Assembly: GCA_011087645.1 (NCBI GenBank)
Contig: JAALLF010000001.1
Span: 143,687-207,686, forward strand
Reading direction: 5' to 3'
Length of the DNA stretch: 64,000 nt
From: Alphaproteobacteria bacterium
GTDB lineage: Bacteria; Pseudomonadota; Alphaproteobacteria; UBA6615
Below the pieces are notes generated by a model. The model did not search any database. It saw only the letters and a program-made list of their open reading frames with translations, and was not told the origin of the DNA. Position 1 is the stretch's first letter. The number at the start of each line of letters is the position of its first letter. Positions 23,651 through 40,131 of the stretch are shown in pieces. Made by a program: the position numbers and the translations under genes.

Positions 23651-24157
23651 CTAGCTATCCGCGCTAACCTTACCGCTCGCGCGGGCGGCTTTCTGCTGGT
23701 CCACACCGGACTTGCCGGCGTCGGTCTCGGCATCCCACTGGTTCTCGTGGGCGAGATGCTGGTTTTCGTCCCACTCGTGCTCGGTGCCCTCGCCCATGAA
23801 CACGCAAAATACTTCGCAGCCATCGGGATATTCGTAGGGCCCGTGGGATATATCGCCGCCGAAGACATAATCGCCGGCCCGCAAATCCTTGCCGGCGACG
23901 CACATACGGCCATCGAGCACACAGATCGAATGCCAGCTTTTGTGGCTGTGCTCGGGCTCCACATAGCCCGGCGGAAATTTCACCTTCATATCGACCCGTT
24001 TCATCACCGGGTCGTAATTCAGGATTTTTACCTTCACGCCCGGCGGCAGGGTCAGTATCTCGTTGGCGTCGTTGCCTTCTTTCCATTCGACTTCATGGTC
24101 GTGGAGGGCCACGAACACATGATTTCCGGTCTCCGCCGTCGTGGCTTGATCCGCCAT
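23651..24157 (-). CDS. Cupin-domain protein
   Basis: Internal start MADQATT within track ORF 23651..24397; single cupin barrel with His-rich motifs (EPEHSHKSWH ... GGDISHGPYEY). Confidence 0.6.
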   Translation of the reverse strand: MADQATTAETGNHVFVALHDHEVEWKEGNDANEILTLPPGVKVKILNYDPVMKRVDMKVKFPPGYVEPEHSHKSWHSICVLDGRMCVAGKDLRAGDYVFGGDISHGPYEYPDGCEVFCVFMGEGTEHEWDENQHLAHENQWDAETDAGKSGVDQQKAARASGKVSADS

Positions 24158-24179
24158 ATTAGGGTCTCCCTTGGACAGT

Positions 24180-25340
24180 TTATTCTTGTGGGTCGAGCAT
24201 AGCGCTCCGCCACTCATTTTGCACATCAACATCGTTTTCGTGCGGCATTTTCTCCGCCTGCCATCGCTTAAATACGTCGTGCGGCGCGAGCTGCGATAGC
24301 GCCCATACCGCAGCGCCCCGCACCACGGGCGCCTGGTCATCGAGCAACGACTCGACCACTGGCACAATCTTCGCGTCGCCGCTATTTCCCAATGCAATTA
24401 ATACGTTGCGAACGAACCGGTCTCGGCCCGAGCGCTTGATCGCGGTCTTCGAGAACAACCGGCGGAATTCCCCATCGTCGAGGCGCGCCAGTTCGGCCAG
24501 GCGCGGTGCGGTGAGCTCGTGGCGCGGTTTCAGCTCCGGGTCGCCGCCGGCTTGGGCAAATTTGTTCCAGGGACAGACCGCCAGGCAATCGTCGCAGCCA
24601 TAGATGCGGTTACCCATCAACGGCCGCAGTTCCCGGTCTATGGGCCCGGCATGTTCGATGGTCAGATAGGAAATGCAGCGCCGCGCATCGAGTTGATAAG
24701 GGGCGGGAAAGGCGTTGGTCGGACACACATCCATGCAACGGTGGCAAGACCCGCAGTGATCCTCCACCGGTGGGTCGGCGGCAAGATCGAGGGTGGTGTA
24801 GACCTCGCCGAGGAACATCCACGAACCGTGCGCGCGCGACACCAGATTGGTGTGCTTGCCCTGCCAGCCCAGCCCGGCCTGCTGGGCCAAAGGCTTTTCC
24901 ATCACCGGGGCGGTATCGACGAAAATCTTGATGCCGCAATCAAATTCCTCGCCGATCCAGCGCCCCAACACCCGCAATCGTTTTTTCAAGACCTCGTGAT
25001 AGTCGCGGCCCCTGGCATAGACCGAAATATTGCCAGTCGCCGCGCGCGACAGGTTGTCCAGAGGATCGTCTTCGGGCGCGTAGGAAATACCCAGTGCAAC
25101 GACGCTGCGCGCCTCGGGCCACAACACCCGCGGATCACCGCGCCGTTCGGCCTTGCCGACCAGCCAGCCCATATCGCCGTGATAGCCGCGGCGCAAATAT
25201 TCAGCCAGATTTTCCCGATTGGCGTCGGAAAGCGCGGCCGGCGCAAACCCGACCGCGCTGAACCCGACCGCTAAGGCGCGTTCGCGTATCTGACCACGAA
25301 TATCATCGCGCGCGATCGGCTCTGGTGCGGCGACGGTCAA
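24180..25340 (-). CDS. queG: Epoxyqueuosine reductase (tRNA queuosine biosynthesis)
   Basis: 386 aa; two 4Fe-4S ferredoxin Cys clusters (CGSCHRCMDVCP, CDDCLAVCP) and C-terminal HEAT-like tail typical of QueG. Confidence 0.85.
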   Translation of the reverse strand: MTVAAPEPIARDDIRGQIRERALAVGFSAVGFAPAALSDANRENLAEYLRRGYHGDMGWLVGKAERRGDPRVLWPEARSVVALGISYAPEDDPLDNLSRAATGNISVYARGRDYHEVLKKRLRVLGRWIGEEFDCGIKIFVDTAPVMEKPLAQQAGLGWQGKHTNLVSRAHGSWMFLGEVYTTLDLAADPPVEDHCGSCHRCMDVCPTNAFPAPYQLDARRCISYLTIEHAGPIDRELRPLMGNRIYGCDDCLAVCPWNKFAQAGGDPELKPRHELTAPRLAELARLDDGEFRRLFSKTAIKRSGRDRFVRNVLIALGNSGDAKIVPVVESLLDDQAPVVRGAAVWALSQLAPHDVFKRWQAEKMPHENDVDVQNEWRSAMLDPQE

Positions 25341-29242: not shown

Positions 29243-30001
29243 CTACTCCGCCGCTTCCGCCGACAGCCTGCCCGCCTCGCGCCAGACATCGATGACCTCT
29301 TCGGCCTGCACCACCTGGCCGAACCAGCGGTCGATATTGACCAAGGTGGCGTTATGCATCTCTTCGGTGACGGTGCCGGTGCAGTCGTCGGCGAAGACGA
29401 TGTAATAGTCGTGGAAGAAACCGTCGCGCGCGGTCGATTCGACGCAGCCATTGGTGATCGCGCCGGTCATGATCAGCGAGCGGATGCCGTTCGAGCGTAA
29501 GACCATGTCGAGATTGGTGCCGATGAACCCGCCATAACGGTGTTTATGGATGATCGGCTCGCCCGGCCGCGGTTCGATGCCTTCGTAGAAATCACCACCC
29601 CAGCCATCTTCCATACACACCGGATATTCGATGAACCGTCCCTTCCATTGGCGCAGCGACTGTTCGAGCCAGACATCGGACATCAGGTTCATGTCGGCGT
29701 TGTAGATGGTCTGGATATAGACGATCAGACAACGCGCCTGGCGCGCCTTGTCGATCAGATTGACCAACCGCGGCACCATGGTCTGGATGCGCGTCAGATC
29801 GAAGCCCTCGGTATCGAGCATGCCGCCTTCGGCGCAGAAATCGTTCTGCACATCGACCACGATCACCGCGGTATGGGCCGGATCGGTCTTGGCTTCCAGG
29901 GTGGTCAGCGCGCGCGCCAGGGTCTTGTCGATATTGGCGCGCATGACCGGGGTGATCTTGTCCGGGTTGCGGTTCGATAGGGTGGCGTTGTCGTCGGCCA
30001 T
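29243..30001 (-). CDS. Isochorismatase-family cysteine hydrolase
   Basis: 252 aa; isochorismatase fold motifs (TAVIVVDVQNDF, catalytic Cys in MTGAITNGCVESTARD). Confidence 0.8.
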   Translation of the reverse strand: MADDNATLSNRNPDKITPVMRANIDKTLARALTTLEAKTDPAHTAVIVVDVQNDFCAEGGMLDTEGFDLTRIQTMVPRLVNLIDKARQARCLIVYIQTIYNADMNLMSDVWLEQSLRQWKGRFIEYPVCMEDGWGGDFYEGIEPRPGEPIIHKHRYGGFIGTNLDMVLRSNGIRSLIMTGAITNGCVESTARDGFFHDYYIVFADDCTGTVTEEMHNATLVNIDRWFGQVVQAEEVIDVWREAGRLSAEAAE

Positions 30002-30080
30002 AGTGTCCTCCCGTTGGGCCGCATTGGTTCGGACTCACGCTGTTGCGGCCGCGTTGCGGGCCTGAGCATAGAGCAGTTGC

Positions 30081-31214
30081 CTAGAGGACGGGAAGCGCCA
30101 CGTTGAGCGCCCGTTCGAAAAGCCAGACCGACGCCACGACCACCACCAGCGCCGACCCCACCTGGAGGCCGCCTCGTGGATAGAAGCGCCAATCGCGCGC
30201 TAGATAGGCCAGCGGCAGAAAGGCTGCGACGATGGCCAGTTGACCGACTTCGACGCCGACATTGAAGCTCAGAAGCGCTAGCACCAATGCGCCGGGGGGT
30301 AAGCCCAAATCGACCAGCACGCTGGCGAAACCCAGGCCGTGCACCAAGCCGAAGGCGAAGGCAACGAGCCAGAGCCGCCGGGTGACCACTGGATAGATGT
30401 TGTTGAGGGCGGCGATAACCACAGAGGCGGCGATTACCGATTCGACCAGGCGCGTCGGCAGATCGATGGCGCCCAGCGCCGCCAGGGTCAAGGTGATCGA
30501 GTGGGCGAGCGTGAACGCCGTGACGATCTTGAGGACTTGTCCGAAGGCCGCGCGGAAGTCGCCGACCGGCTCCCAGGTCCTGGCGCGGCGCAAGAACACT
30601 GCCGGCAGCAACAGCGTGAGCAGGAACAGCACATGGTCGAAACCGATCCAGATATGCCACACGCCATTGACGGCGAATTCGAGCCCCTGGCGCAATAGAT
30701 CCACCTGACCCAGTTCAAGGGACTGGGTTGCGGCGGCGGGCGCGAAGATAACGGTCTGGGTCTGGCCGCCCGCGGTGAGTTGCAAGAGGCCGCGATGCTG
30801 GGGGTCGAGGTCGAAGAACAGGCTATAGTCGACCTCGATAGATTGCGCCGGCGCCGCACAAGAGGCGGCAAAGCGCAGCACCGCGTAGACGCCGTCACTG
30901 TGGGTGTCGACCAATTGTTCGCCGGGCGTCAGCGCGCAGTCCGCCGCGCCCGCGCTAACTCGCAGACGCGCCAAGGCGTAGGCCGAAATCGCTGTGTGGC
31001 GCGCCTGTAATTCGGTCCACGAGATGGCGCCGTCACCGTTGCCGTCCAACCCGATGGCGAATTCCAGATCGCGTAGCGCGATGTCCCACTGCCCCTCGAT
31101 GCGCTCACCGCTGACCTCCAGGCTGAGATAGGAGTCACTGGGCTTGTGAGCCGACGCCGAGACCGGCATGAGGGCCAGGATCACCAACAGACAAAGGGTT
31201 AGCCACCGAACCAT
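30081..31214 (-). CDS. HupE/UreJ-family (Ni/Co-type) membrane transporter with ~190-aa N-terminal periplasmic extension
   Basis: 377 aa; signal peptide plus soluble domain, then 6 TM with HupE signatures (GVWHIWIGFDHVLF and GLVHGLGFA); start overlaps TPR gene stop (TGATG). Confidence 0.65.
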   Translation of the reverse strand: MVRWLTLCLLVILALMPVSASAHKPSDSYLSLEVSGERIEGQWDIALRDLEFAIGLDGNGDGAISWTELQARHTAISAYALARLRVSAGAADCALTPGEQLVDTHSDGVYAVLRFAASCAAPAQSIEVDYSLFFDLDPQHRGLLQLTAGGQTQTVIFAPAAATQSLELGQVDLLRQGLEFAVNGVWHIWIGFDHVLFLLTLLLPAVFLRRARTWEPVGDFRAAFGQVLKIVTAFTLAHSITLTLAALGAIDLPTRLVESVIAASVVIAALNNIYPVVTRRLWLVAFAFGLVHGLGFASVLVDLGLPPGALVLALLSFNVGVEVGQLAIVAAFLPLAYLARDWRFYPRGGLQVGSALVVVVASVWLFERALNVALPVL

Positions 31215-32479
31215 CAGCTTGCCTCCCCTTCAAGGCGCGCGGTCAGCCGGTCGATCTGCCGATCCCGCAGGCCGGTTTTGCGCAACCAATCGAGCGCCGG
31301 CTGGGCCCGGTCCGGCACCCCGGCGGCCAGGGCCGCCGCCAACACGAGGCGCACATCAGCTGGTTCGCGCTGCGCCTGCCAATTGGCCTCCGCCAGCGCG
31401 AGGGCCGCGGCAGGCCGCTCGAGAATCTCCAGGGTAAAGCGCGCCTCTTCGCGACGGTGGATCACGCTACCCCGCGCCCGGCTGGCCGCGAAGCGCGCTT
31501 CCAGCAGCGCTCGATGATCCTGCGCGGCGGGATCTCCAAGGCGCGCCTCGGCCAGCGTCAAACGCAACAACAGCCCGTCGATCCGCGTGTCGTCGGCAAG
31601 AAAGTCACGGGCCTCCTGGGCGCGGCCGCTATCGAGCAGCAAATCGGCATAGGCGCCGCGCAAATAGGCGTCGCGCCGGCCGAGATCCAGCCCGTCGCGG
31701 AAATGGCGTTCCGCAGCGATGACATCGCCGCGGCGCTGGGCAATCTCGCCCAAATTAGTGAAGGCCCAGAGGCGTAGGCCACGGTCGGCGTCGGTCCAAT
31801 TGGCCAGTCCGCGTTTGAGCAACCCATAACCGGTGTCGGACCGGCCGGTCAGGCTTTCGATGCGGGCCACGCAGGTGACCACAATGAGGGGGTGCACCCC
31901 GCGCGGCAACGCGCGGCAACTGCGGCGCGCGTCGGCGTAGCGCCCCTGCACCTGCAGCACGAACGCCTGGGTCAACAGAGCTTGCGCGTGTTTGGGCTTG
32001 GCGGCGAGAGTTTGAGCAAGGTCGTCCAGCGCGCCGTCGAAATCATGGCGATTTTGCTTCAAGACCGCGCGAAGAACGCGGACCTCGACCGGCGGTGCGG
32101 CCAGGTTGACCCAAGGCTTCAAGGCGGCCTCGGCATAACCGTAATAGCGCGGATCGGCCTCGGCGCGGCCCAAGCCGATATAGCGCTTGGCCAGGGTGCG
32201 GGCTAATTCGAGGTCGTTGGGAGTTTCGTTAAGTTTGGCGCGCAGATGGCGCAACTCGCGCGTCGCCGCGTCGCCGGCTTTTGGCAAACGTTCCAATATC
32301 TGATCGCCCGACGTGGGGCGAAAAGGTTCGGCGGCCGCCGCCGTCGGGTTGAGAACCGCGGCAGCGACAAGGGCGGAGATGAAAATACGGCGCACCGGTT
32401 TGATAATCGGTCGCCGCAGCGTGAAAGCACCGCGCCGAAACGGCGTTGGCGGAAAAGTATCATTTTTACAGTTTGTCAT
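31214..32479 (-). CDS. Secreted tetratricopeptide-repeat (TPR)-like protein, function unknown
   Basis: 421 aa, N-terminal signal-like hydrophobic segment, Ala/Leu/Arg-rich helical repeats typical of TPR/Sel1-like solenoids. Confidence 0.55.
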   Translation of the reverse strand: MTNCKNDTFPPTPFRRGAFTLRRPIIKPVRRIFISALVAAAVLNPTAAAAEPFRPTSGDQILERLPKAGDAATRELRHLRAKLNETPNDLELARTLAKRYIGLGRAEADPRYYGYAEAALKPWVNLAAPPVEVRVLRAVLKQNRHDFDGALDDLAQTLAAKPKHAQALLTQAFVLQVQGRYADARRSCRALPRGVHPLIVVTCVARIESLTGRSDTGYGLLKRGLANWTDADRGLRLWAFTNLGEIAQRRGDVIAAERHFRDGLDLGRRDAYLRGAYADLLLDSGRAQEARDFLADDTRIDGLLLRLTLAEARLGDPAAQDHRALLEARFAASRARGSVIHRREEARFTLEILERPAAALALAEANWQAQREPADVRLVLAAALAAGVPDRAQPALDWLRKTGLRDRQIDRLTARLEGEAS

Positions 32480-32569
32480 CGCGCTTCCCCAAAATTGACA
32501 TCGGCTCGGTGGGCAAAGGGGGGCGAGCTCGCTGGAACCCGCCCCGCATACTGTGGTTCAAGAACTGGC

Positions 32570-34045
32570 TTACTTTTTCTTGCCGTTGCCGTTGGCGTTC
32601 CCGTTGCCATTGCCCGCATCGGGACCAGTGCCGGCCTCTTCACCGTGATGACCGTGGTTGCGGCCGTTCAGCGGTGTGGCGGCGTAGGGGAAGACATCGT
32701 TGAAGGTGATGTCGTTCTCGGTCACGCCGTCGAGATCCATGGTGGCGAAACCGAGGGCGTTCAGCGCGATATCGTCGACATCGTCACCGAAGCGCCGGCC
32801 ATTTGGCCAACCACCGGGGACCGCGCCGCCGAAATCGAGCGCGCTGCCCAAATTAGTGGTGGGCAACAGGTCGCCACCGAACACGCTCAAGCGGTTAAAG
32901 CCAGCTTCACCGGCAAGCCGGGCCGGGCCGGTCGACAGGTCGACCTTGATCACATCTGGGATGTAGATGTCCCGGACCAACAGAACCGTCGGATCGAGCT
33001 GGCTGGGAAGCGGTGTCAGGCCCAGTAACGCGGCGATTTCCGGGTTCTCGGCATAGGTGGCGAACAACGCGGCATCCTGCGTCGCATCGGTGGCGTTGTA
33101 ATTGTCTTTATCGACAATCGCGACCAATGCCTCGTTGAATAACGGGTTGCCCTGGCGGCCGACTTGAACCCACTCGGAAACACCGTTGACCGTCTGTTGA
33201 CGGCTGGTCGTGGCATGCACACCGGCAAATCCGGCATTGTTGAGTTCGCTCAGCGGAATGTTCAAAACGATAGTGTGAACATTGAAACCGCCTTGGCTAT
33301 CGAACGGTTTGGTTGGGGTACCGGTGTCACCACCGAACGTGAAATCCAGATCGAAGATTGACTGAATATCAGCATAGAACCCGTCATCGCGCTGTCCGGC
33401 AAAGACCCGGTAACCGCTGGCGTTCTCGGCGATCCCAGCACTGGTGTAGATGTCGAGATCGGCTTCGTCATCGACGCCAGGCTTGGCCGTACGGTCGCCA
33501 TCATTGTCCTGGTTGTAGAACGGCGTCACCAGACCCTGGTTGTTCGGCGGCACCATGGTGTCGCCATTGTCGAACAGCACGGTCGATCCGCCGGCATCGA
33601 CGCGGGTGACTTGGTAGGTCTGCTGTAAGTTTTGGTTGGGACCGAAAGTCGCGCCGACTTCGCCGAGATAGGCTTGAAGGATCGTTTGATCGTTCTGGTA
33701 GGTCGTGTCGAACTCGAACTGGTAGCTGATGGTTTTGGTACCCGTGCCGATATCGTTGTCGAGCGAGACGTGGATCTCGTAGAGAACCCGGTCGTCGAAA
33801 CGATAATTGTTCGGCCCGATGCCCGGCTCCTCAAAGGGGGAAACGGCGAGCGCCGTGGTCAGGTACTGGGTGCTGCCGTCTTGGCTCTGACTGCGGAACG
33901 CATAGACATCGGTGGTGTTCGCCGGGTCATCGAAAGTGATGAGCGGCGCATCCATATGGCTCGACGCCAATGACGGCGCGACCGGGAGCATTCCGGCAAG
34001 AACGGCGCCGACCGCGACGGTCGAAACAAGTTTTCGGTAGTTCAT
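32570..34045 (-). CDS. Secreted DUF4331-family protein with C-terminal His/Asn-Gly-rich tail
   Basis: Start MNYRKLV (GGAGA SD 8 nt upstream) within track ORF 32570..34165; signal peptide followed by SSHMDAP motif resembling the DUF4331 N-terminal signature; tail NGRNHGHHGEEAGTGPDAGNGNGNANGNGKKK. Confidence 0.6.
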   Translation of the reverse strand: MNYRKLVSTVAVGAVLAGMLPVAPSLASSHMDAPLITFDDPANTTDVYAFRSQSQDGSTQYLTTALAVSPFEEPGIGPNNYRFDDRVLYEIHVSLDNDIGTGTKTISYQFEFDTTYQNDQTILQAYLGEVGATFGPNQNLQQTYQVTRVDAGGSTVLFDNGDTMVPPNNQGLVTPFYNQDNDGDRTAKPGVDDEADLDIYTSAGIAENASGYRVFAGQRDDGFYADIQSIFDLDFTFGGDTGTPTKPFDSQGGFNVHTIVLNIPLSELNNAGFAGVHATTSRQQTVNGVSEWVQVGRQGNPLFNEALVAIVDKDNYNATDATQDAALFATYAENPEIAALLGLTPLPSQLDPTVLLVRDIYIPDVIKVDLSTGPARLAGEAGFNRLSVFGGDLLPTTNLGSALDFGGAVPGGWPNGRRFGDDVDDIALNALGFATMDLDGVTENDITFNDVFPYAATPLNGRNHGHHGEEAGTGPDAGNGNGNANGNGKKK

Positions 34046-34358
34046 AACATGGTCTCCATTCATAGGCTTGAGGGTAGGAAGGTTCGTTTGGCTTGATCGA
34101 ATTGCGGTGATCCAGCTCGCGGCATGGGCCGAAAAATGGATCGTGAAATTCGACTTCCCTGGCAATTACGTTGCCGATGAATGGATGGATGCAGGCTCAG
34201 ATAACGTTACTGTGAGGATCGGCTGATCTACGACAGATCGAGTGATAATCGCCTCGAAAACGTGAAAAGTCTCCAGTCGCGCCGTAGCGCAATGGGGTGT
34301 CTGAAAATGGGAAATTTCGGGAGACGCCCGGGAAACGGGCAAAAATTGGGCGAAAAAC

Positions 34359-34904
34359 TTAGCGCAGTTCGCCGCGAATATAGGCCACGCCGCCTTGCGC
34401 GCTATAGATCACCGGATGACGGGTGTCGGCTTCCATGACGTGAAAATCGCCCGGCTTAAGGTGGATATCGCCGATGTCGAACGATCCCTCGAGCACGATA
34501 CATTCTTCCGTCGCGCGGTGCTTGTGCGACGGCAATTGCGCCCCCGGCGCGACCCGCAGCAGATAGGATTCGCTGCGCGCCATTTCATCGAAATAGAGGG
34601 TTTTTTTCTCAATGCCCTCCGCCAGCTGTTCCCACGCCCCCTCGCCAGCGTGAATGGTAACCGAGCTGGGCCGCTCGGTCGCCAAGGCATCCAGGGCGCC
34701 ATCTATATTGGCCCACAGACCGGCCGACGGCTCGACCGCCGCCGCGCCCTGCCCCAATCCGTTCAGGCGACGTTCCCAATCCGCGACCCGCGCTCGCAAT
34801 TTCGGATCGCGCGCCAAGGCTTCAGCAAACCGCCGACGCGCGTCGCCATCGAGAGTACCCAACACGTACTCAGCGGCCAGGCCGTCATCGTGTTCGTGCG
34901 TCAT
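34359..34904 (-). CDS. Anti-sigma factor, RskA-like N-terminal domain + ChrR-type cupin (paralog 2)
   Basis: 181 aa; N-terminus MTHEHDDGLAAEYVLGTLDGD (class II anti-sigma domain, no Zn Cys) and C-terminal cupin; ~65% identical to 35070..35627. Confidence 0.7.
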   Translation of the reverse strand: MTHEHDDGLAAEYVLGTLDGDARRRFAEALARDPKLRARVADWERRLNGLGQGAAAVEPSAGLWANIDGALDALATERPSSVTIHAGEGAWEQLAEGIEKKTLYFDEMARSESYLLRVAPGAQLPSHKHRATEECIVLEGSFDIGDIHLKPGDFHVMEADTRHPVIYSAQGGVAYIRGELR

Positions 34905-35042
34905 CGGACTCGAAAATCCCTAACTCGCTGCTATTTGATCAGCCCCGGGCATGACATAGTTCTCAAACAGGCCCCTGGCAAATCGGCCTATTCTCGCGAA
35001 AATCGTTCCAACAATACGCCAGAACAATTAACTTTGTCGTTG

Positions 35043-35068
35043 CGACTAAGGGCTGACCGAACAGCCCG
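35043..35068 (-). terminator. Stem-loop immediately downstream of anti-sigma paralog 1 (possible weak terminator/attenuator)
   Basis: GGCTGACCG-N7-CGGTCAGCC hairpin 2 nt after stop; no strong T-tract. Confidence 0.3.
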
Positions 35069-35069
35069 G

Positions 35070-35627
35070 TCAGCCAGTCGCTTCGCGCAACTCACCACGA
35101 ACATAAATGACTGCGCCATGCTCGCTGAAGGCATCCGGATGGGTCGTGCCGGCGTCGATGGCGTGAAAATCGCCTGCCGCCAGATGAATGTCGCCGATAT
35201 CGAAGGTGCCTTCCATGACCAGGCATTCCTCGGCGGAGCTGTGATCGTGGGACGGCAATAAGGTGCCCGGCGCGATCCGCAGCAAATAAGACTCGCTGCG
35301 CGCCGCGGTGTCGAAATAGAGCAGTTTCTTTTCGACGCCCTCGGCAAGTGTTTCCCACTCGCCCTCATCGCCGCGTAAGGTTACGGAGTTGGGCAGGCTT
35401 GCCGCCGCCCCATCCAAGGCCGCATTAATCTTGTCCCATAGCCCGGCCGACGGCTCGACTTCGCTCGACCCTGGCTCCAACCCTTGTAACCGATGCTGCC
35501 ATTCTTCGACCAGGGCCTGCAGTTCGGGATCGCGCGCCAGGGCCTCGGCAAACCGCCGGCGTCCGTCGCCCTCAAGGGTGCCGAGAACATATTCCGCTGC
35601 CAAGCCGTCATTGTGTTCATGGGTCAT
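35070..35627 (-). CDS. Anti-sigma factor, RskA-like N-terminal domain + ChrR-type cupin (paralog 1), cognate to upstream ECF sigma
   Basis: Start MTHEHNDGL; start ATG overlaps the sigma gene stop (ATGA at 35624-35627); same architecture as paralog 2. Confidence 0.75.
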   Translation of the reverse strand: MTHEHNDGLAAEYVLGTLEGDGRRRFAEALARDPELQALVEEWQHRLQGLEPGSSEVEPSAGLWDKINAALDGAAASLPNSVTLRGDEGEWETLAEGVEKKLLYFDTAARSESYLLRIAPGTLLPSHDHSSAEECLVMEGTFDIGDIHLAAGDFHAIDAGTTHPDAFSEHGAVIYVRGELREATG

Positions 35628-36190
35628 TGGTCGAGGCATTCCTTGAGCTGGAGCAGGCCACGACGGACCCAACTTTTGACCGTGCCCAACGGCGTGTCGA
35701 GCGAACTGGCCAACTCCTGGTGGGTATGGCCGTAGTAATACGCCAAAACAATAGCTTTCTGCTGCTTGGATTGCAGTTTTTCCAGGCAGCCACGAAGACC
35801 GTCATCTATCCGGTCGAACGGCGCCTCTGTTGCAATATCAGCCCCCAAGCCGCCTTCGATGAGATCATCCAGGCTCGCCTGCGAACGCGGCTCGCGGTTC
35901 TGGCTGCGCAACTGGTCGATCGCCCGATGTCGCACGATCGTCCCCATCCACGACAACGGCCGGCCACGGTCGGGGTGATATTGGCTGGCCTTCTTCCAGA
36001 TGGTTATGTAGGCCTCTTGGAGTACTTCTTCCGCTGGCTCGCGCTGACGCAGAATGCGCATCGAGATCGCCAGTAGCCGTGACGCGGACAGATTGTATAG
36101 CCGCGCAAACGCGTCCCGATCGCCTCGCCCAGCGGCTAGCAACAGTTCCTCGAGCGGATCGAGTTCAGCTATGTGGGTGGCACTCGTCAC
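35624..36190 (-). CDS. ECF-family RNA polymerase sigma factor (sigma-70 regions 2 and 4)
   Basis: Region 2 (LYNLSASRLLAISMRILRQREPAEEVLQEAYITIWKKA) and region 4 HTH (AIVLAYYYGHTHQELASSLDTPLGTVKSWVRRGL); probable GTG start at 36190 (GGGGG upstream); track ORF extends to 36316. Confidence 0.85.
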   Translation of the reverse strand: MTSATHIAELDPLEELLLAAGRGDRDAFARLYNLSASRLLAISMRILRQREPAEEVLQEAYITIWKKASQYHPDRGRPLSWMGTIVRHRAIDQLRSQNREPRSQASLDDLIEGGLGADIATEAPFDRIDDGLRGCLEKLQSKQQKAIVLAYYYGHTHQELASSLDTPLGTVKSWVRRGLLQLKECLDQ

Positions 36191-36347
36191 GCCAATACCC
36201 CCGGATACAGGCTCACGGGGGCGACTATACAACACAAATAGCTTGGAAGCCCATGGCAACTCACGATTGCATACAGGACTACCTGATGGCGTTGTCGGCC
36301 AACGGGGTCGGGTCACGATGATGACCTTGCCATGAAATATTCCTTTC

Positions 36348-36767
36348 TCAGTCGCGCTGGTCTCCCGATTGTCGCTTCAAATAGGCGATGATATCGGCCC
36401 GGTCCGTCGCCTTTGGAACTCGGATATTCATCCGTTGGCCAGGGATAAAGCCTTGCGGGTTTTCCAACCAGCGATCGATTGTGTCGTCGGTCCAAATCAC
36501 CTCGGACTTCTGCAAAGCCGGTGAATAATCAAAGCCTTCCACCCCGCCGGCGCGACGGCCGTGGAGGCCTTGGTGTTTGGGGCCGACGCGATTAGCATCA
36601 AGAGAATGACAGACGCTGCAGCGGCTTTCGTAAAGTAGTTCGCCGCGCCCCGAATCCGGCAACGCCGCGGTTGTATCCGTGGACGCCCCAAAGGCGTTAC
36701 TTGATAGAAACCAGGAGAGCCCGAGGATGCTGGCGATGGCCATGGCGTGTTTCAATATGGTTTTCAC
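36348..36767 (-). CDS. Monoheme class I cytochrome c
   Basis: Probable GTG start (GAGGTG SD) with signal peptide MAIASILGLSWFLSSNAFG; heme motif CSVCH and distal Met region; track ORF 36348..36932. Confidence 0.75.
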   Translation of the reverse strand: MKTILKHAMAIASILGLSWFLSSNAFGASTDTTAALPDSGRGELLYESRCSVCHSLDANRVGPKHQGLHGRRAGGVEGFDYSPALQKSEVIWTDDTIDRWLENPQGFIPGQRMNIRVPKATDRADIIAYLKRQSGDQRD

Positions 36768-36865
36768 GTCGCACCTCTGAAAAGGGATCCCGAGGCCTTG
36801 AGGGGGGAACTCACGGCCCCGGGATAGTTTGGAGTTCGGGGAGGGGAACAGGTTAAATAACTGCG

Positions 36866-37477
36866 CTAGACGCCGAAGGTCAGCGCCGCTTTGGGAACTG
36901 GCTGGCCAAGGGCGTTGGCCAGAACAGTCCAATGCATGGTCTCGTCGGCGGCTAAACGGCCGGCAATCTGCGCCAGATCCGCATCGCCAAAGGCCGGAAT
37001 GACGCCGATATAGGCATTGGCGGCGCCGCGTTCGAGGCGGGCGGCAAGCTTCAGAACATCGGTCTGATTCTTCAGCGTATTGGCCTTCAGATCGCTGGCA
37101 TAGTCAGCCAGCTTCTTGGCAGCAACCGCTGTACCGCCGAGTTTCTTGACTGTATCGGCCAGCGCATCGCGATGCGCCTTGTGGTGACCTTGGAACAGCA
37201 CCGCCACGTCGAGCACCGGTTTCTGTAAAAGCCCGCTTTCGGCGCCAAGCCGGTAGGCGTTGATGGCCTCATGCTCGAGACCGAGGGCCACATTGAGAAT
37301 TGCGGTGTCCTGCGCCGGATCGGACTTGCGCCCACCGCTATGACTGGCGGCCAGGCTATCGCTGCCCGCGATCAGCGCGATCGCGGTCGCTGACAGAGTG
37401 ACCTTACCGGCGCTGCCAAGAAACCGTCGGCGCGACTCACCCTGATACGCTCGCTGGCTGGGATTTAAGTGGGTCAT
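36866..37477 (-). CDS. Tat-exported ferritin-like (DUF4439-type) protein
   Basis: Start MTHLNPSQ (GGAGA SD); twin-arginine motif SRRRFLGSAG; four-helix ferritin-like E/H-rich region (LGLEHEAINAY ... ADETMHWTVL). Confidence 0.65.
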   Translation of the reverse strand: MTHLNPSQRAYQGESRRRFLGSAGKVTLSATAIALIAGSDSLAASHSGGRKSDPAQDTAILNVALGLEHEAINAYRLGAESGLLQKPVLDVAVLFQGHHKAHRDALADTVKKLGGTAVAAKKLADYASDLKANTLKNQTDVLKLAARLERGAANAYIGVIPAFGDADLAQIAGRLAADETMHWTVLANALGQPVPKAALTFGV

Positions 37478-37705
37478 TTTAACGTCTCCATTTGCATCTG
37501 TTGATCGGGCATGGTCGCCCGAAAGCGGCCTTACATGGGCTATTACGCTGGCCGAGCGGGAATAGATGCAGGGCGCACAAAAAAATTGGGAAGTACCGTG
37601 CGTCGCCGAAAATCGATTGTGATGCCACACAAAAGGCGGATTCTCATGTAAGGTGCGATACAAATAGGCGACAAATCACCCACATGTCCGCCGAGGAAAC
37701 GACCC

Positions 37706-38476
37706 ATGACACGCAACCGATTGGCCTTGTGCCTTGCCGCCTTTGTCGCGGCGGTCTCGCTACCTGTCAGCGCCCAGGCGCAACTCGACCTGCTCAAACG
37801 CGGCAAAGACGCGCTGCAATCGATCCCCGGCACCGGGGGAAGCGGCGGATCGACATCACCCGCCGCAGCCCTTACGGACACCGAAATCGGCAGCGGTTTG
37901 CGCGAAGCGCTGACCGTGGGGGTGCGTACAGTAGTGTCCCAGGTGGGCGCGACCGACGGCTACAACGCCGATCCGCGTATCCATATACCCCTGCCAAAGA
38001 GCCTGGAGACGGTGCAAAAAACCCTGTCACGCATCGGCATGTCAGACTTGGTCGACGATCTAGAACTGCGCCTCAACCGCGCCGCTGAGAAGGCCGCGCC
38101 GGAAGCGCGCGAAGTGTTTGGCCAGGCCATTCGGGACATGACCTTCGACGACGTGCAGATGATCTATAAAGGTCCCGACGACGCCGCGACACGTTTTCTC
38201 GAGCGCACCATGAGCAGTCCGCTGGTCCAGCGCATGCGTCCGATTGTCGACGATAGCCTGTCGGACGTCGGCGCGGTGCGGGCCTATGACAATGCCATCG
38301 GCCAGTACAAGGCAATCCCCTTCGTGCCCGATGCCAAGGCCGACCTTACCGAGCATGTTCTCGAACGCGCCCTGAAGGGGCTGTTCCTCTATCTCGCCGA
38401 AGAAGAGGCCGCGATCCGCCAGAACCCGGTCAAACGCACGACAACACTGCTGCAAAAGGTGTTCGGCGCCAGTTAA
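37706..38476 (+). CDS. Periplasmic DUF4197-family protein
   Basis: 256 aa, signal peptide, TEIGSGLREAL-type motif typical of DUF4197. Confidence 0.5.
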   Translation: MTRNRLALCLAAFVAAVSLPVSAQAQLDLLKRGKDALQSIPGTGGSGGSTSPAAALTDTEIGSGLREALTVGVRTVVSQVGATDGYNADPRIHIPLPKSLETVQKTLSRIGMSDLVDDLELRLNRAAEKAAPEAREVFGQAIRDMTFDDVQMIYKGPDDAATRFLERTMSSPLVQRMRPIVDDSLSDVGAVRAYDNAIGQYKAIPFVPDAKADLTEHVLERALKGLFLYLAEEEAAIRQNPVKRTTTLLQKVFGAS

Positions 38477-38514
38477 ACTAACGACACTGGCGGCAAATCA
38501 GCTACCCTTAGCCC

Positions 38515-40131
38515 GTGACAAAGACAATGGGCCCGTTCGATTACGTCATCGTCGGCGCCGGCACGGCCGGGTGCGTGCTGGCGAACCGGCTATCCGCCGA
38601 TCCAGACGTGAGTGTTTGTCTGCTCGAGGCCGGCGGTAATGATAATTACATCTGGGTCCACATCCCGGTCGGCTACCTGTATTGCATGGGCAATCCGCGC
38701 ACCGATTGGGGCTTTACCACCCAAGCGGAAGCCGGTCTCAACGGCCGCGCGTTGAACTATCCACGCGGGCGAATTCTCGGCGGCTGCTCGTCGATCAACG
38801 GCATGATCTATATGCGCGGTCAGGCGCGCGACTATGACGGTTGGCGTCAACGCGGCAATGCCGGCTGGGGTTGGGACGATGTGGTGCCGTACTTTTTGCG
38901 CTCCGAAGACCAGGCAGCGCTGCCGATCGACGATTTGCACGCCGACGGCGGCGAATGGCGAGTCGAGCGCCAGCGCCTGTCGTGGGACGTGCTCGACGCA
39001 TTCCGCGAGGCAGCGGCCGAGGCCGGCATCCCCAAGACCGATGACTTCAACCGCGGTAACAACGAAGGCTGCGGCTATTTTCACGTCAACCAGCGCACCG
39101 GGGTCCGCGTCAGCGCCGCCAAGGCGTTCCTGAAACCGGCGATGAAGCGGCCCAACCTAACTGTCCTTACACATGCCCAGGCCAAGCGCTTGACCCTGGC
39201 CGAGGGCCGGGTCAGCGGTGTCGATATTTGGCACAAGGGCGCGAACACCCATGTCGCCGCCGACGGCGAGGTGGTATTAGCGACCGGCTCGGTCGGCACG
39301 CCACAACTGCTCGAATTATCAGGGATCGGCGGCGGAGCTTTGTTACAGAGCCATGGCATCGAGGTTGCCCACGACCTCCCCGGCGTCGGCGAAAACCTGC
39401 AGGACCATCTGCAAATCCGCTGCGCCTACAAGGTACACGGGGTAAAAACCCTGAACGAAAAGGCCAATAGTCTGGTTGGCAAGGCCAGCATCGCGCTGGA
39501 GTATGCGCTGTTGCGCCGCGGCCCCATGTCGATGGCGCCGAGCCAGTTAGGCGCCTTCGTTAAATCCGATCCGGCGCTGGAGACGCCCGACCTGCAGTAT
39601 CATGTGCAACCGCTCAGCCTGGACAAGTTCGGCGAACCGCTGCACGACTTTCCGGCGCTGACCGCCAGCGTGTGTAATTTGCGCCCTGAATCGCGCGGTA
39701 GCATCCATATATCCAGCCCCGATGCGCGCCAGCAGCCGGCGATCAAGCCGAATTACCTATCCGCCGCGGCGGATCAGCGGGTAGCGGCGCAGGCGATCCG
39801 GGTGACCCGCAACATCGTCGCCCAGCCGGCCTTCGCTCAGTACCGCCCCGAGGAGTTCAAGCCGGGCCCCGATTATGGCGACGATGATGAGGGGTTGGCG
39901 CGCGCCGCTGGCGATGTGGGCACCACCATCTTCCACCCGGTCGGCACGGCCCGCATGGGCGACGACGCGGGGGCCGTGGTCGACAGCCGGTTGCGGGTGC
40001 ATGGCGTCGCCGGCCTGCGAGTGGTCGACGCCTCGGTGATGCCGACGATTACCTCGGGCAATACCAATTCGCCGGTGATCATGATCGCCGAGAAGGCTTC
40101 CGATATGATGCGCGATGACCGGCGCGGCTAA
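38515..40131 (+). CDS. GMC-family FAD oxidoreductase (choline/alcohol dehydrogenase-like)
   Basis: 538 aa; FAD fingerprint [23 protein letters not shown] signatures ([14 protein letters not shown], active-site His in HPVGTARMG). Confidence 0.9.

Follow-up and report, generated by a model that had tools for sequence, protein, structure and literature searches.

Pairs of an extracytoplasmic function (ECF) sigma factor and its anti-sigma factor are usually described as having one sensor per sigma. Why, then, do two paralogous candidate anti-sigma genes lie behind a single ECF sigma gene in an alphaproteobacterial genome (assembly GCA_011087645.1)? We addressed this question in a 64-kb stretch of contig JAALLF010000001.1 (positions 143,687 to 207,686), called the window (WIN) below, and compared it with loci of relatives, numbered L001-L020. 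One sigma of SigK type here appears to have two soluble sensor-inhibitors, AS1 and AS2, which have long been kept and differ almost only around the metal site of the sensor. We put the probability at roughly 55% that both inhibit this one sigma, with diverged sensor inputs and separate expression, and that together they form a threshold or a two-signal gate. The genes concerned are the following:

35624-36190, minus strand: ECF sigma factor of SigK type, 188 aa from GTG 36190 (Pfam region 2 and region 4 domains)
35070-35627, minus strand: AS1, a 185-aa soluble anti-sigma candidate (RskA-type zinc-free anti-sigma domain and ChrR-type cupin)
34905-35069: spacer between AS1 and AS2, exactly 165 bp
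34359-34904, minus strand: AS2, a 181-aa paralog of AS1 with the same domain architecture

A preliminary description of this DNA, made from the sequence alone, had the gene pair right but let it end at 35672, which is the TTG of the longest open reading frame (ORF); the MTHEH start is ATG 35627. Its two proteins of about 180 aa and 65% identity agree with our alignment, in which AS1 and AS2 share 120 of 181 residues (66%; gapless; BLASTP E 5e-91), and both do begin with MTHEH(N/D)DGLAAEYVLGTL. AS1 had also been recognised correctly as translationally coupled to the sigma gene: its ATG (35627-35625) overlaps the sigma TGA (35626-35624) as ATGA. AS2, again as described, is set apart by the spacer and has a stem-loop upstream. 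In NCBI the counterparts of the two are consecutive proteins of an Alphaproteobacteria metagenome-assembled genome, named "hypothetical protein" and "cupin domain-containing protein"; NKB49406.1 and NKB49407.1 come from the genome of the window or one almost identical to it.

What kind of proteins are these? Both match Cupin_7, the ChrR cupin-like family of Pfam (PF12973; 59.8 and 51.5 bits, cutoff 27), and the best PDB match found by Foldseek for the AlphaFold model of AS1 (mean pLDDT 87.8) is the sigmaE-bound ChrR of 2Q1Z (chains B and D), aligned along its full length over 178-181 columns with an E value of 7e-12. The C-terminal ChrR-type cupin that had been proposed for both proteins thus holds. 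The TM score of this alignment is a modest 0.47 because AS1 and ChrR differ in the relative orientation of their two domains; other Foldseek matches include KdgF and dioxygenases. In the model, helices at residues 3-15, 20-32, 34-50 and 63-72 are followed by a low-confidence linker and a beta-barrel. The metal ligands of the ChrR cupin are H141, H143, E147 and H177 (PMC6852236). They align with H127, H129, E133 and H163 of AS1 and AS2, which are invariant in 32 of 32 aligned family members, both paralogs included, and the ligand pattern His-x-His-x3-Glu ... His is present in both cupins. Both proteins miss the cutoffs of the curated ChrR family (TIGR02451; 43.9 and 42.5 bits vs 124.5) and of NF051881 (35 and 34 bits vs 300).

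The N-terminal domain is of another type than that of ChrR. The anti-sigma domain (ASD) of ChrR carries a zinc site made of H6, H31, C35 and C38, the HxxxCxxC motif (PMC6852236). This site was not found in AS1 or AS2, whose residues 1-80 hold no Cys and whose sole Cys is C135, and on this point the earlier reading of the two N-termini is borne out. The same reading had assigned them to class II. Class II domains, of the CnrY/NepR type, are short, have about two helices and are unrelated to the four-helix ASD. That label is contradicted by the four-helix model, by the full-length alignment to the class I protein ChrR, and by a 49% identity over 63 aa (BLASTP E 2e-9) to the N-terminus of an anti-sigma that contains RskA_C. 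Furthermore, residues 9-83 match the NCBIfam anti-sigma models NF052375 (1e-12 and 9e-12) and PRK13920, below the full-length cutoffs, and the AAEYVLGTL motif of the domain recovers over 560 relatives from metagenomes, for the most part similar in the N-terminal 70-80 residues only. On the model and the alignments, the N-terminus of both proteins is best assigned as a zinc-free class I ASD of RskA type and not as a CnrY/NepR-type class II domain. We looked for a membrane segment and found none in either protein (maximum 19-residue Kyte-Doolittle averages 0.67 and 0.64; PF10099, RskA_C, unmatched), and since a hydrophobic segment is missing both are taken to be soluble. Altogether, AS1 and AS2 are predicted to be zinc-free RskA-type class I ASDs fused to a cytoplasmic ChrR-type cupin, and both are candidate anti-sigmas of ChrR architecture.

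Are both copies maintained, and where do they differ? Purifying selection acts on both: comparisons of orthologs give a dN/dS of 0.11-0.14 (AS1) and 0.07-0.12 (AS2), and within AS2 it is 0.06-0.08 for the cupin and 0.06-0.18 for the ASD. The 22 family-invariant residues, including all those of the ASD, are kept in both proteins (22 of 22), and helices 1-3 are 78% identical between them. As dS between the paralogs is 1.3-1.4, their similarity does not come from recent gene conversion; we rejected such conversion as the source of the alike N-termini on this ground and on finding one site only with a genome-specific shared state. In the three lineages with two copies, paralog-specific differences are fixed at 15 positions; the cupin accounts for 14 and the ASD for one (Fisher p = 0.0023), position 51 in the linker after helix 3. 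The cupin differences cluster around the metal ligands and reverse the local charge, the ligand surroundings being acidic in AS1 (HDHSS ... DAGTTHPD) and basic in AS2 (HKHR(A/S) ... EADTRHPV):

position 128: D in AS1, K in AS2
position 130: S in AS1, R in AS2
position 162: T in AS1, R in AS2
position 165: D in AS1, V in AS2

Additional fixed differences lie at cupin positions 156-158. From the alignments we infer that the two proteins would bind the same sigma while their cupins have diverged in binding or sensing, which is the pattern to be expected in that case.

Which sigma would these domains hold? The sigma encoded just upstream has PRK09646 (SigK) as its best NCBIfam match (3.6e-45, below the model cutoff) and SigK 4NQW_A as its best PDB match (5e-24; R. 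sphaeroides SigE, 1.6e-16). It consists of sigma-2 and sigma-4 domains only, with an RskA-like anti-sigma encoded at position +1, and its relatives of 187-193 aa point to the GTG 36190 start. In the alignment to 4NQW_A both SigK cysteines are conserved (CLEKL aligns with CLKAL, and KECLD with RNCLD); in SigK this pair is redox-sensitive (PMC7509140, PMC7826278). Judged by its best matches, the cysteine pair and the RskA-like neighbour, the sigma belongs with the SigK clade (ECF18/ECF19/ECF214). The SigK matches, taken with the RskA-type ASD and the cupin, point to a SigK-clade sigma whose RskA-like partner has swapped its membrane/periplasmic part for a cytoplasmic cupin.

Two further observations concern the sigma gene. 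The segment directly upstream of its GTG (36191-36277, minus strand) is conserved in L001 and L003 and contains a TATAGT/TATAAT -10-like element as well as a CCCCCG...CGGGGG stem-loop at about 36197-36223, which stops short of the start codon by a few bases and differs between lineages in a compensatory manner; a basal promoter may lie here, together with a structure hiding the ribosome-binding site of the sigma gene. At L005 (6438-7004), a locus from one metagenome assembly, sigma is called as two ORFs of 134 and 48 aa while both anti-sigmas are intact, either because that population has a frameshift or pseudogene or because the assembly is in error.

How widespread is the arrangement? A word-indexed search returned 44 clusters of the family, and an exhaustive profile search returned 280 clusters (at 50% identity) with E <= 1e-30, the majority being full-length and about 180 aa long; the ASD-cupin architecture is thus not rare, and the notion of a rare family was rejected. 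The copy number of the anti-sigma gene varies between loci:

L001/L017 (97% identical to each other) and L003-5: sigma, AS1, AS2 and DUF4331 in the order of the window
L011, L012, L013, L014, L018, L019 and L020: single anti-sigma copy
L006-8 (three independent assemblies): intact sigma-anti-sigma-DUF4331 set, preceded by an orphan 184-aa anti-sigma that itself follows a decayed sigma remnant
L016: sigma, AS, sigma, AS, AS, DUF4331
L015: copy number not scorable, as the contig ends at the AS gene

The AS1-AS2 pair is accordingly kept in three species-level lineages of uncultured Alphaproteobacteria (WIN, L001/L017 and L003-5). At these loci the orthologs are 77-82% (AS1) and 81-82% (AS2) identical to the window proteins, and identity across paralogs is 61-69%. 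The remnant in L006 (6831-7001; also in L007 and L008) is a sigma region 4 with an in-frame stop (...ETVKSWGR*GLPRLRERCEQ), directly upstream of the orphan anti-sigma, which has outlasted its own sigma. L016 (676-3674) has the order sigA, ASa, sigB, ASb, ASc, DUF4331; identity is 49% between its two sigmas, 73% between ASa and ASc, and 81% between ASb and the L006 copy that is coupled to sigma, and the anti-sigmas paired with different sigmas share only about 43% identity. Given these three kinds of arrangement (the pair of the window, L006-8 and L016), extra anti-sigma copies have been kept at least three times, by two routes. A duplicated anti-sigma for a single sigma had been called uncommon at the outset. 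That is right insofar as most relatives are single-copy; however, extra copies arose at least two more times within the family (L006-8 and L016), and paralogous anti-sigmas for one ECF sigma were already known (S. meliloti RsiA1/RsiA2; PMC8103513).

Some related sequences were considered in the same survey. A decayed sigma 3' end upstream of AS2, as in L006, was rejected, tblastn finding no such remnant in the window. A third anti-sigma copy in the window was likewise rejected, the match at 23651-24397 (minus strand) being a stand-alone cupin without an ASD; its resemblance to the cupin parts of the two paralogs is weak (25%), the ORFs next to it (which were not domain-scanned) showed no noticeable sigma gene, and it appears unrelated to the locus. 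At L009 (5089-9547), DUF4331 has an orphan 193-aa cupin anti-sigma as its neighbour; the latter is convergent with a cluster that encodes an ECF sigma, a membrane anti-sigma of RskA_C type and a sigma-like protein having region 4 only. Ferritin-like and cytochrome c genes then follow, with the same promoter motif as at the locus of the window.

How, then, might sigma and its two candidate inhibitors be expressed? The locus runs, on the minus strand throughout, in the order ferritin-like, cytochrome c, sigma, AS1, spacer, AS2, DUF4331, TPR, HupE_UreJ_2, and a pattern search for TGCATC[C/T]-N16-CGTA(A/G)T gave 2 matches in 64 kb against 0.55 expected:

37544-37570, minus strand: putative sigma-dependent promoter P1, TGCATCT-N16-CGTAAT, upstream of the ferritin-like gene
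36866-37477, minus strand: ferritin-like protein, Ferritin_2/DUF4439 (Pfam PF13668, 3e-25, and PF14530)
36348-36767 (approximate; start uncertain), minus strand: small c-type cytochrome (Pfam PF00034; relatives 131-136 aa)
34167-34193, minus strand: putative sigma-dependent promoter P2, TGCATCC-N16-CGTAAT, upstream of the DUF4331 gene
32570-34045, minus strand: DUF4331 protein with signal peptide (Pfam)
31214-32479, minus strand: TPR protein (Pfam)
30081-31214, minus strand: HupE_UreJ_2 membrane protein (Pfam)
30081-34045, minus strand: putative target operon DUF4331-TPR-HupE_UreJ_2

Among the loci compared, the TGCATC motif occurs upstream of the ferritin-like/sigma genes and of DUF4331 in nine lineages each, and in L003-5, where the ferritin-like and cytochrome genes are missing, it is still found upstream of sigma. 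We read P1 and P2 as putative promoters of the sigma itself, and this would imply an autoregulated ferritin-like-cytochrome c-sigma-AS1 operon and a DUF4331-TPR-HupE target operon. The ferritin-like and cytochrome c genes also lie side by side in L009, L011, L014 and L020, and DUF4331, TPR and HupE_UreJ_2 are adjacent in the same order in L003-8 and L012.

For three of these genes the longest ORF begins too far upstream (36866-37663, 35624-36316 and 32570-34165), and relatives point to starts at 37477 (ferritin-like), 36190 (sigma) and 34045 (DUF4331). For the ferritin-like gene, ATG 37477 is likely rather than TTG 37663, because P1 falls within the longest ORF and relatives are 195-205 aa long; the N-terminus of the protein is twin-arginine-like (RRRFLGSAG). 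The DUF4331 promoters share an element, GTAAGTCG(A/G), about 8 nt downstream of the CGTAAT -10 box (window positions ~34150-34166), which is present at equivalent positions in L001, L003, L006, L012, L013, L014 and L016; the ferritin-like promoter has GTAAGG at the equivalent position. This element could be a transcription start region or an operator.

The spacer between the two anti-sigma genes lacks the TGCATC-N16-CGTA motif in every two-copy locus, and a sigma-dependent AS2 promoter, which would have made AS2 a negative feedback unit, was rejected for this reason. Its own features, and one at the AS2 end, are these:

35042-35081, minus strand: stem-loop around the AS1 stop codon, terminator-like, without a U tract (folding)
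35015-35049, minus strand: 35-nt block TTAGTCGCAACGACAAAGTTAATTGTTCTGGCGTA (alignment of WIN, L001, L003 and L004)
34363-34376, minus strand: weak terminator-like hairpin and T run overlapping the AS2 stop (consensus scan only, a scan that finds fewer such sites across the region than in shuffled sequence)

The stem-loop folds at -28.5 kcal/mol (z = -4.9; 0 of 200 shuffles fold as well). The hairpin first reported at 35043-35068 is therefore real and strong, but the span given covers just its 3' part. It recurs at the same place, in weaker form, in L001 and L003 (z about -2.5), and similar inverted repeats, read by eye and not folded, are seen in the single-copy loci L012 and L013. Although spacer length varies between lineages (165, 159 and 118 bp), the stem-loop and the 35-nt block are common to the two-copy lineages and nothing else is. 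The block is the only conserved part of the spacer sequence, is present in two-copy lineages only and is absent downstream of the single anti-sigma gene in L012 and L013. It does not match TGCATC-N16-CGTA and is a candidate promoter or operator of AS2; independent transcription of AS2 is plausible. Other identities for the spacer were rejected: a promoter scan gave no sigma-70 promoter there, sigma-54, EcfG-type (GGAAC...CGTT) and CtrA-box readings of the block were dismissed by eye as not conserved between lineages, and no known RNA element matched in Rfam at E <= 1 in 29500-38600.

The mechanism that we favour builds on the architecture, conservation, selection, location of divergence and promoter motif placement observed above, and supposes sigma binding by both proteins, sensing by the cupins, independent AS2 transcription and a gating logic. 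AS1 and AS2 would both be functional cytoplasmic anti-sigmas of the sigma encoded just upstream, the ASD holding sigma by analogy with ChrR-sigmaE and RskA-SigK, and the cupin with its His-His-Glu-His metal site would be the sensor that controls sigma release (PMC6852236 for ChrR). The pair would go back to the ancestor of a small, uncultured alphaproteobacterial clade, in which the anti-sigma gene, and no other, was duplicated in tandem; thereafter the sigma-binding domains would have stayed equivalent and the cupins diverged beside the metal ligands. From this divergence, AS1 and AS2 probably respond to different or differently tuned cytoplasmic cues, for instance metal or oxidative chemistry. 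Through translational coupling AS1 would be made 1:1 with sigma from the autoregulated operon. Set apart as its own unit by the terminator-like stem-loop, and without the sigma motif, AS2 would supply an inhibitor pool that does not scale with sigma activity. Sigma would then be released, and both target operons fire, only once both inhibitor pools are inactivated or exceeded, as in a threshold or AND-like gate. The location of 14 of the 15 fixed paralog differences in the cupin agrees with two-signal gating.

Several points weigh against this mechanism. The stem-loop at the AS1 stop, lacking a U tract, was not called by the canonical terminator scan, so AS2 may be transcribed by read-through together with sigma and AS1. 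The 35-nt block shows no recognisable -35/-10 pair and could be an RNA element or an operator instead of a promoter. An alignment with ChrR and RskA, proposed earlier as a check, succeeds for ChrR over its full length (Foldseek) and for an RskA-like N-terminus (BLASTP), but the N-terminal domain stays below the Pfam thresholds for RskA_N and zf-HC2, and a PDB sequence search with it gives no match, RskA included. The search for a second sigma covers the 64-kb window, and another SigK-like sigma may exist elsewhere in the genome. Even for ChrR, the signal sensed by the cupin is unresolved (PMC6852236).

Plain dosage redundancy is the strongest alternative, a possibility that we consider rather unlikely. 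Both proteins would act on the same sigma in answer to the same cue, and AS2, made by read-through of the stem-loop, would raise the anti-sigma:sigma ratio, tightening the off state and damping positive autoregulation. Equivalent ASDs with one fixed difference, a stem-loop that is not called as a terminator, a spacer in which no recognisable promoter was found, and closely spaced genes all on the same strand would suit this explanation. On the other hand, 14 fixed changes around the metal ligands of the cupin, followed by strong purifying selection (AS2 cupin dN/dS 0.06-0.08), fit sub- or neo-functionalisation better than pure dosage, and a conserved block confined to two-copy lineages also argues against it.

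AS2 might instead act on something other than the adjacent sigma, either inhibiting another SigK-like sigma elsewhere or pairing with AS1 through the cupin as a decoy or in an anti-anti-sigma-like manner, which we judge improbable. In its favour, a related genome can have two sigmas and three anti-sigmas in one cluster (L016), L009 has an orphan cupin anti-sigma beside another sigma/RskA module, and the window is 64 kb of the genome only; cupins, moreover, often dimerise. Yet the window holds no second sigma of SigK-like type, AS2 keeps all the ASD invariants, and its one fixed ASD difference from AS1 contrasts with the ~43% identity of L016 anti-sigmas paired with different sigmas. The anti-anti-sigma competition offered in the preliminary description found no positive support. 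Finally, AS2 is very unlikely to have lost anti-sigma function and turned into a small cupin that binds metal or acts as an enzyme and is linked to the regulon only as a neighbour, as its NCBI name and the frequency of enzymes among cupins (compare the KdgF and dioxygenase matches) might suggest, for AS2 equals AS1 in the conservation of its N-terminal helices (78% identity, every invariant retained), its ASD evolves at a dN/dS of 0.06-0.18, and an enzyme would not need to retain an ASD.

We thus return to the reading in which both proteins inhibit the adjacent sigma from separate pools. If it is true, the locus offers a simple natural route for a promoter to answer two cytoplasmic cues or to set an activation threshold. 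A broader and more doubtful proposal, which we make tentatively, is that extra anti-sigma copies in the SigK/cupin family were selected as signal integrators, the autoregulated AS1 and the charge-reversed, independently expressed AS2 making up a two-input AND gate or threshold. As part of this proposal, two evolutionary routes would have led to the same state: duplication of the anti-sigma alone, as in the window, and a doubling of the entire module after which one sigma decayed, as in L006. Cupin anti-sigmas would then give a single ECF sigma a natural, modular means of combinatorial sensing. The locus also defines an uncharacterised module made up of a SigK-type sigma, a predicted RskA-type ASD with a ChrR-type cupin, and a candidate promoter motif; P1, P2 and the small regulon provide concrete reporters for experiments. 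The apparent regulon comprises a Tat-signal ferritin-like DUF4439 protein, a cytochrome c, a secreted DUF4331 protein, a TPR protein and HupE/UreJ_2, whose functions are uncharacterised; our literature search found no paper mentioning DUF4331. This composition hints at periplasmic metal or oxidative chemistry.

How does the locus compare with known systems? With R. sphaeroides sigmaE-ChrR (ECF11; 2Q1Z/2Z2S) it shares a soluble anti-sigma in which an N-terminal four-helix ASD precedes the cupin-like domain, a conserved His-His-Glu-His metal site in the cupin, and an anti-sigma gene (here AS1) immediately downstream of an ECF sigma gene in an autoregulated sigma operon (here from the putative promoter P1). 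Unlike ChrR, which needs its zinc site to inhibit sigmaE (PMC6852236), AS1 and AS2 have an ASD without the His/Cys zinc site; their partner sigma resembles SigK and not RpoE/ECF11, the promoter motif and regulon differ, and there are two paralogs in place of one gene. M. tuberculosis SigK-RskA (ECF18/19 clade; 4NQW) provides the closest solved relative of the sigma (5e-24), with both regulatory cysteines aligned (PMC7509140, PMC7826278), and the ASDs of AS1 and AS2 appear to be of the zinc-free sequence type of RskA, given their AAEYVLGTL motif and the 49% identity to the N-terminus of an RskA_C protein. RskA, however, is a membrane protein with an extracytoplasmic RskA_C domain, whereas AS1 and AS2 have a cytoplasmic cupin and no hydrophobic segment. 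That several paralogous anti-sigmas may serve one ECF sigma system is known from the general stress response of Alphaproteobacteria (PMC8103513), and in having more than one the locus resembles the NepR-type paralogs of S. meliloti (RsiA1/RsiA2) and M. extorquens; with this precedent, its impact is incremental. Those proteins, in contrast, are short class II anti-sigmas under the control of PhyR partner switching; they lack a built-in sensor domain, and their genes do not form a tandem pair following the sigma gene. What is new here is the hybrid of a predicted RskA-type ASD and a ChrR-type cupin, on a SigK-type sigma, as a conserved tandem pair with diverged sensors.

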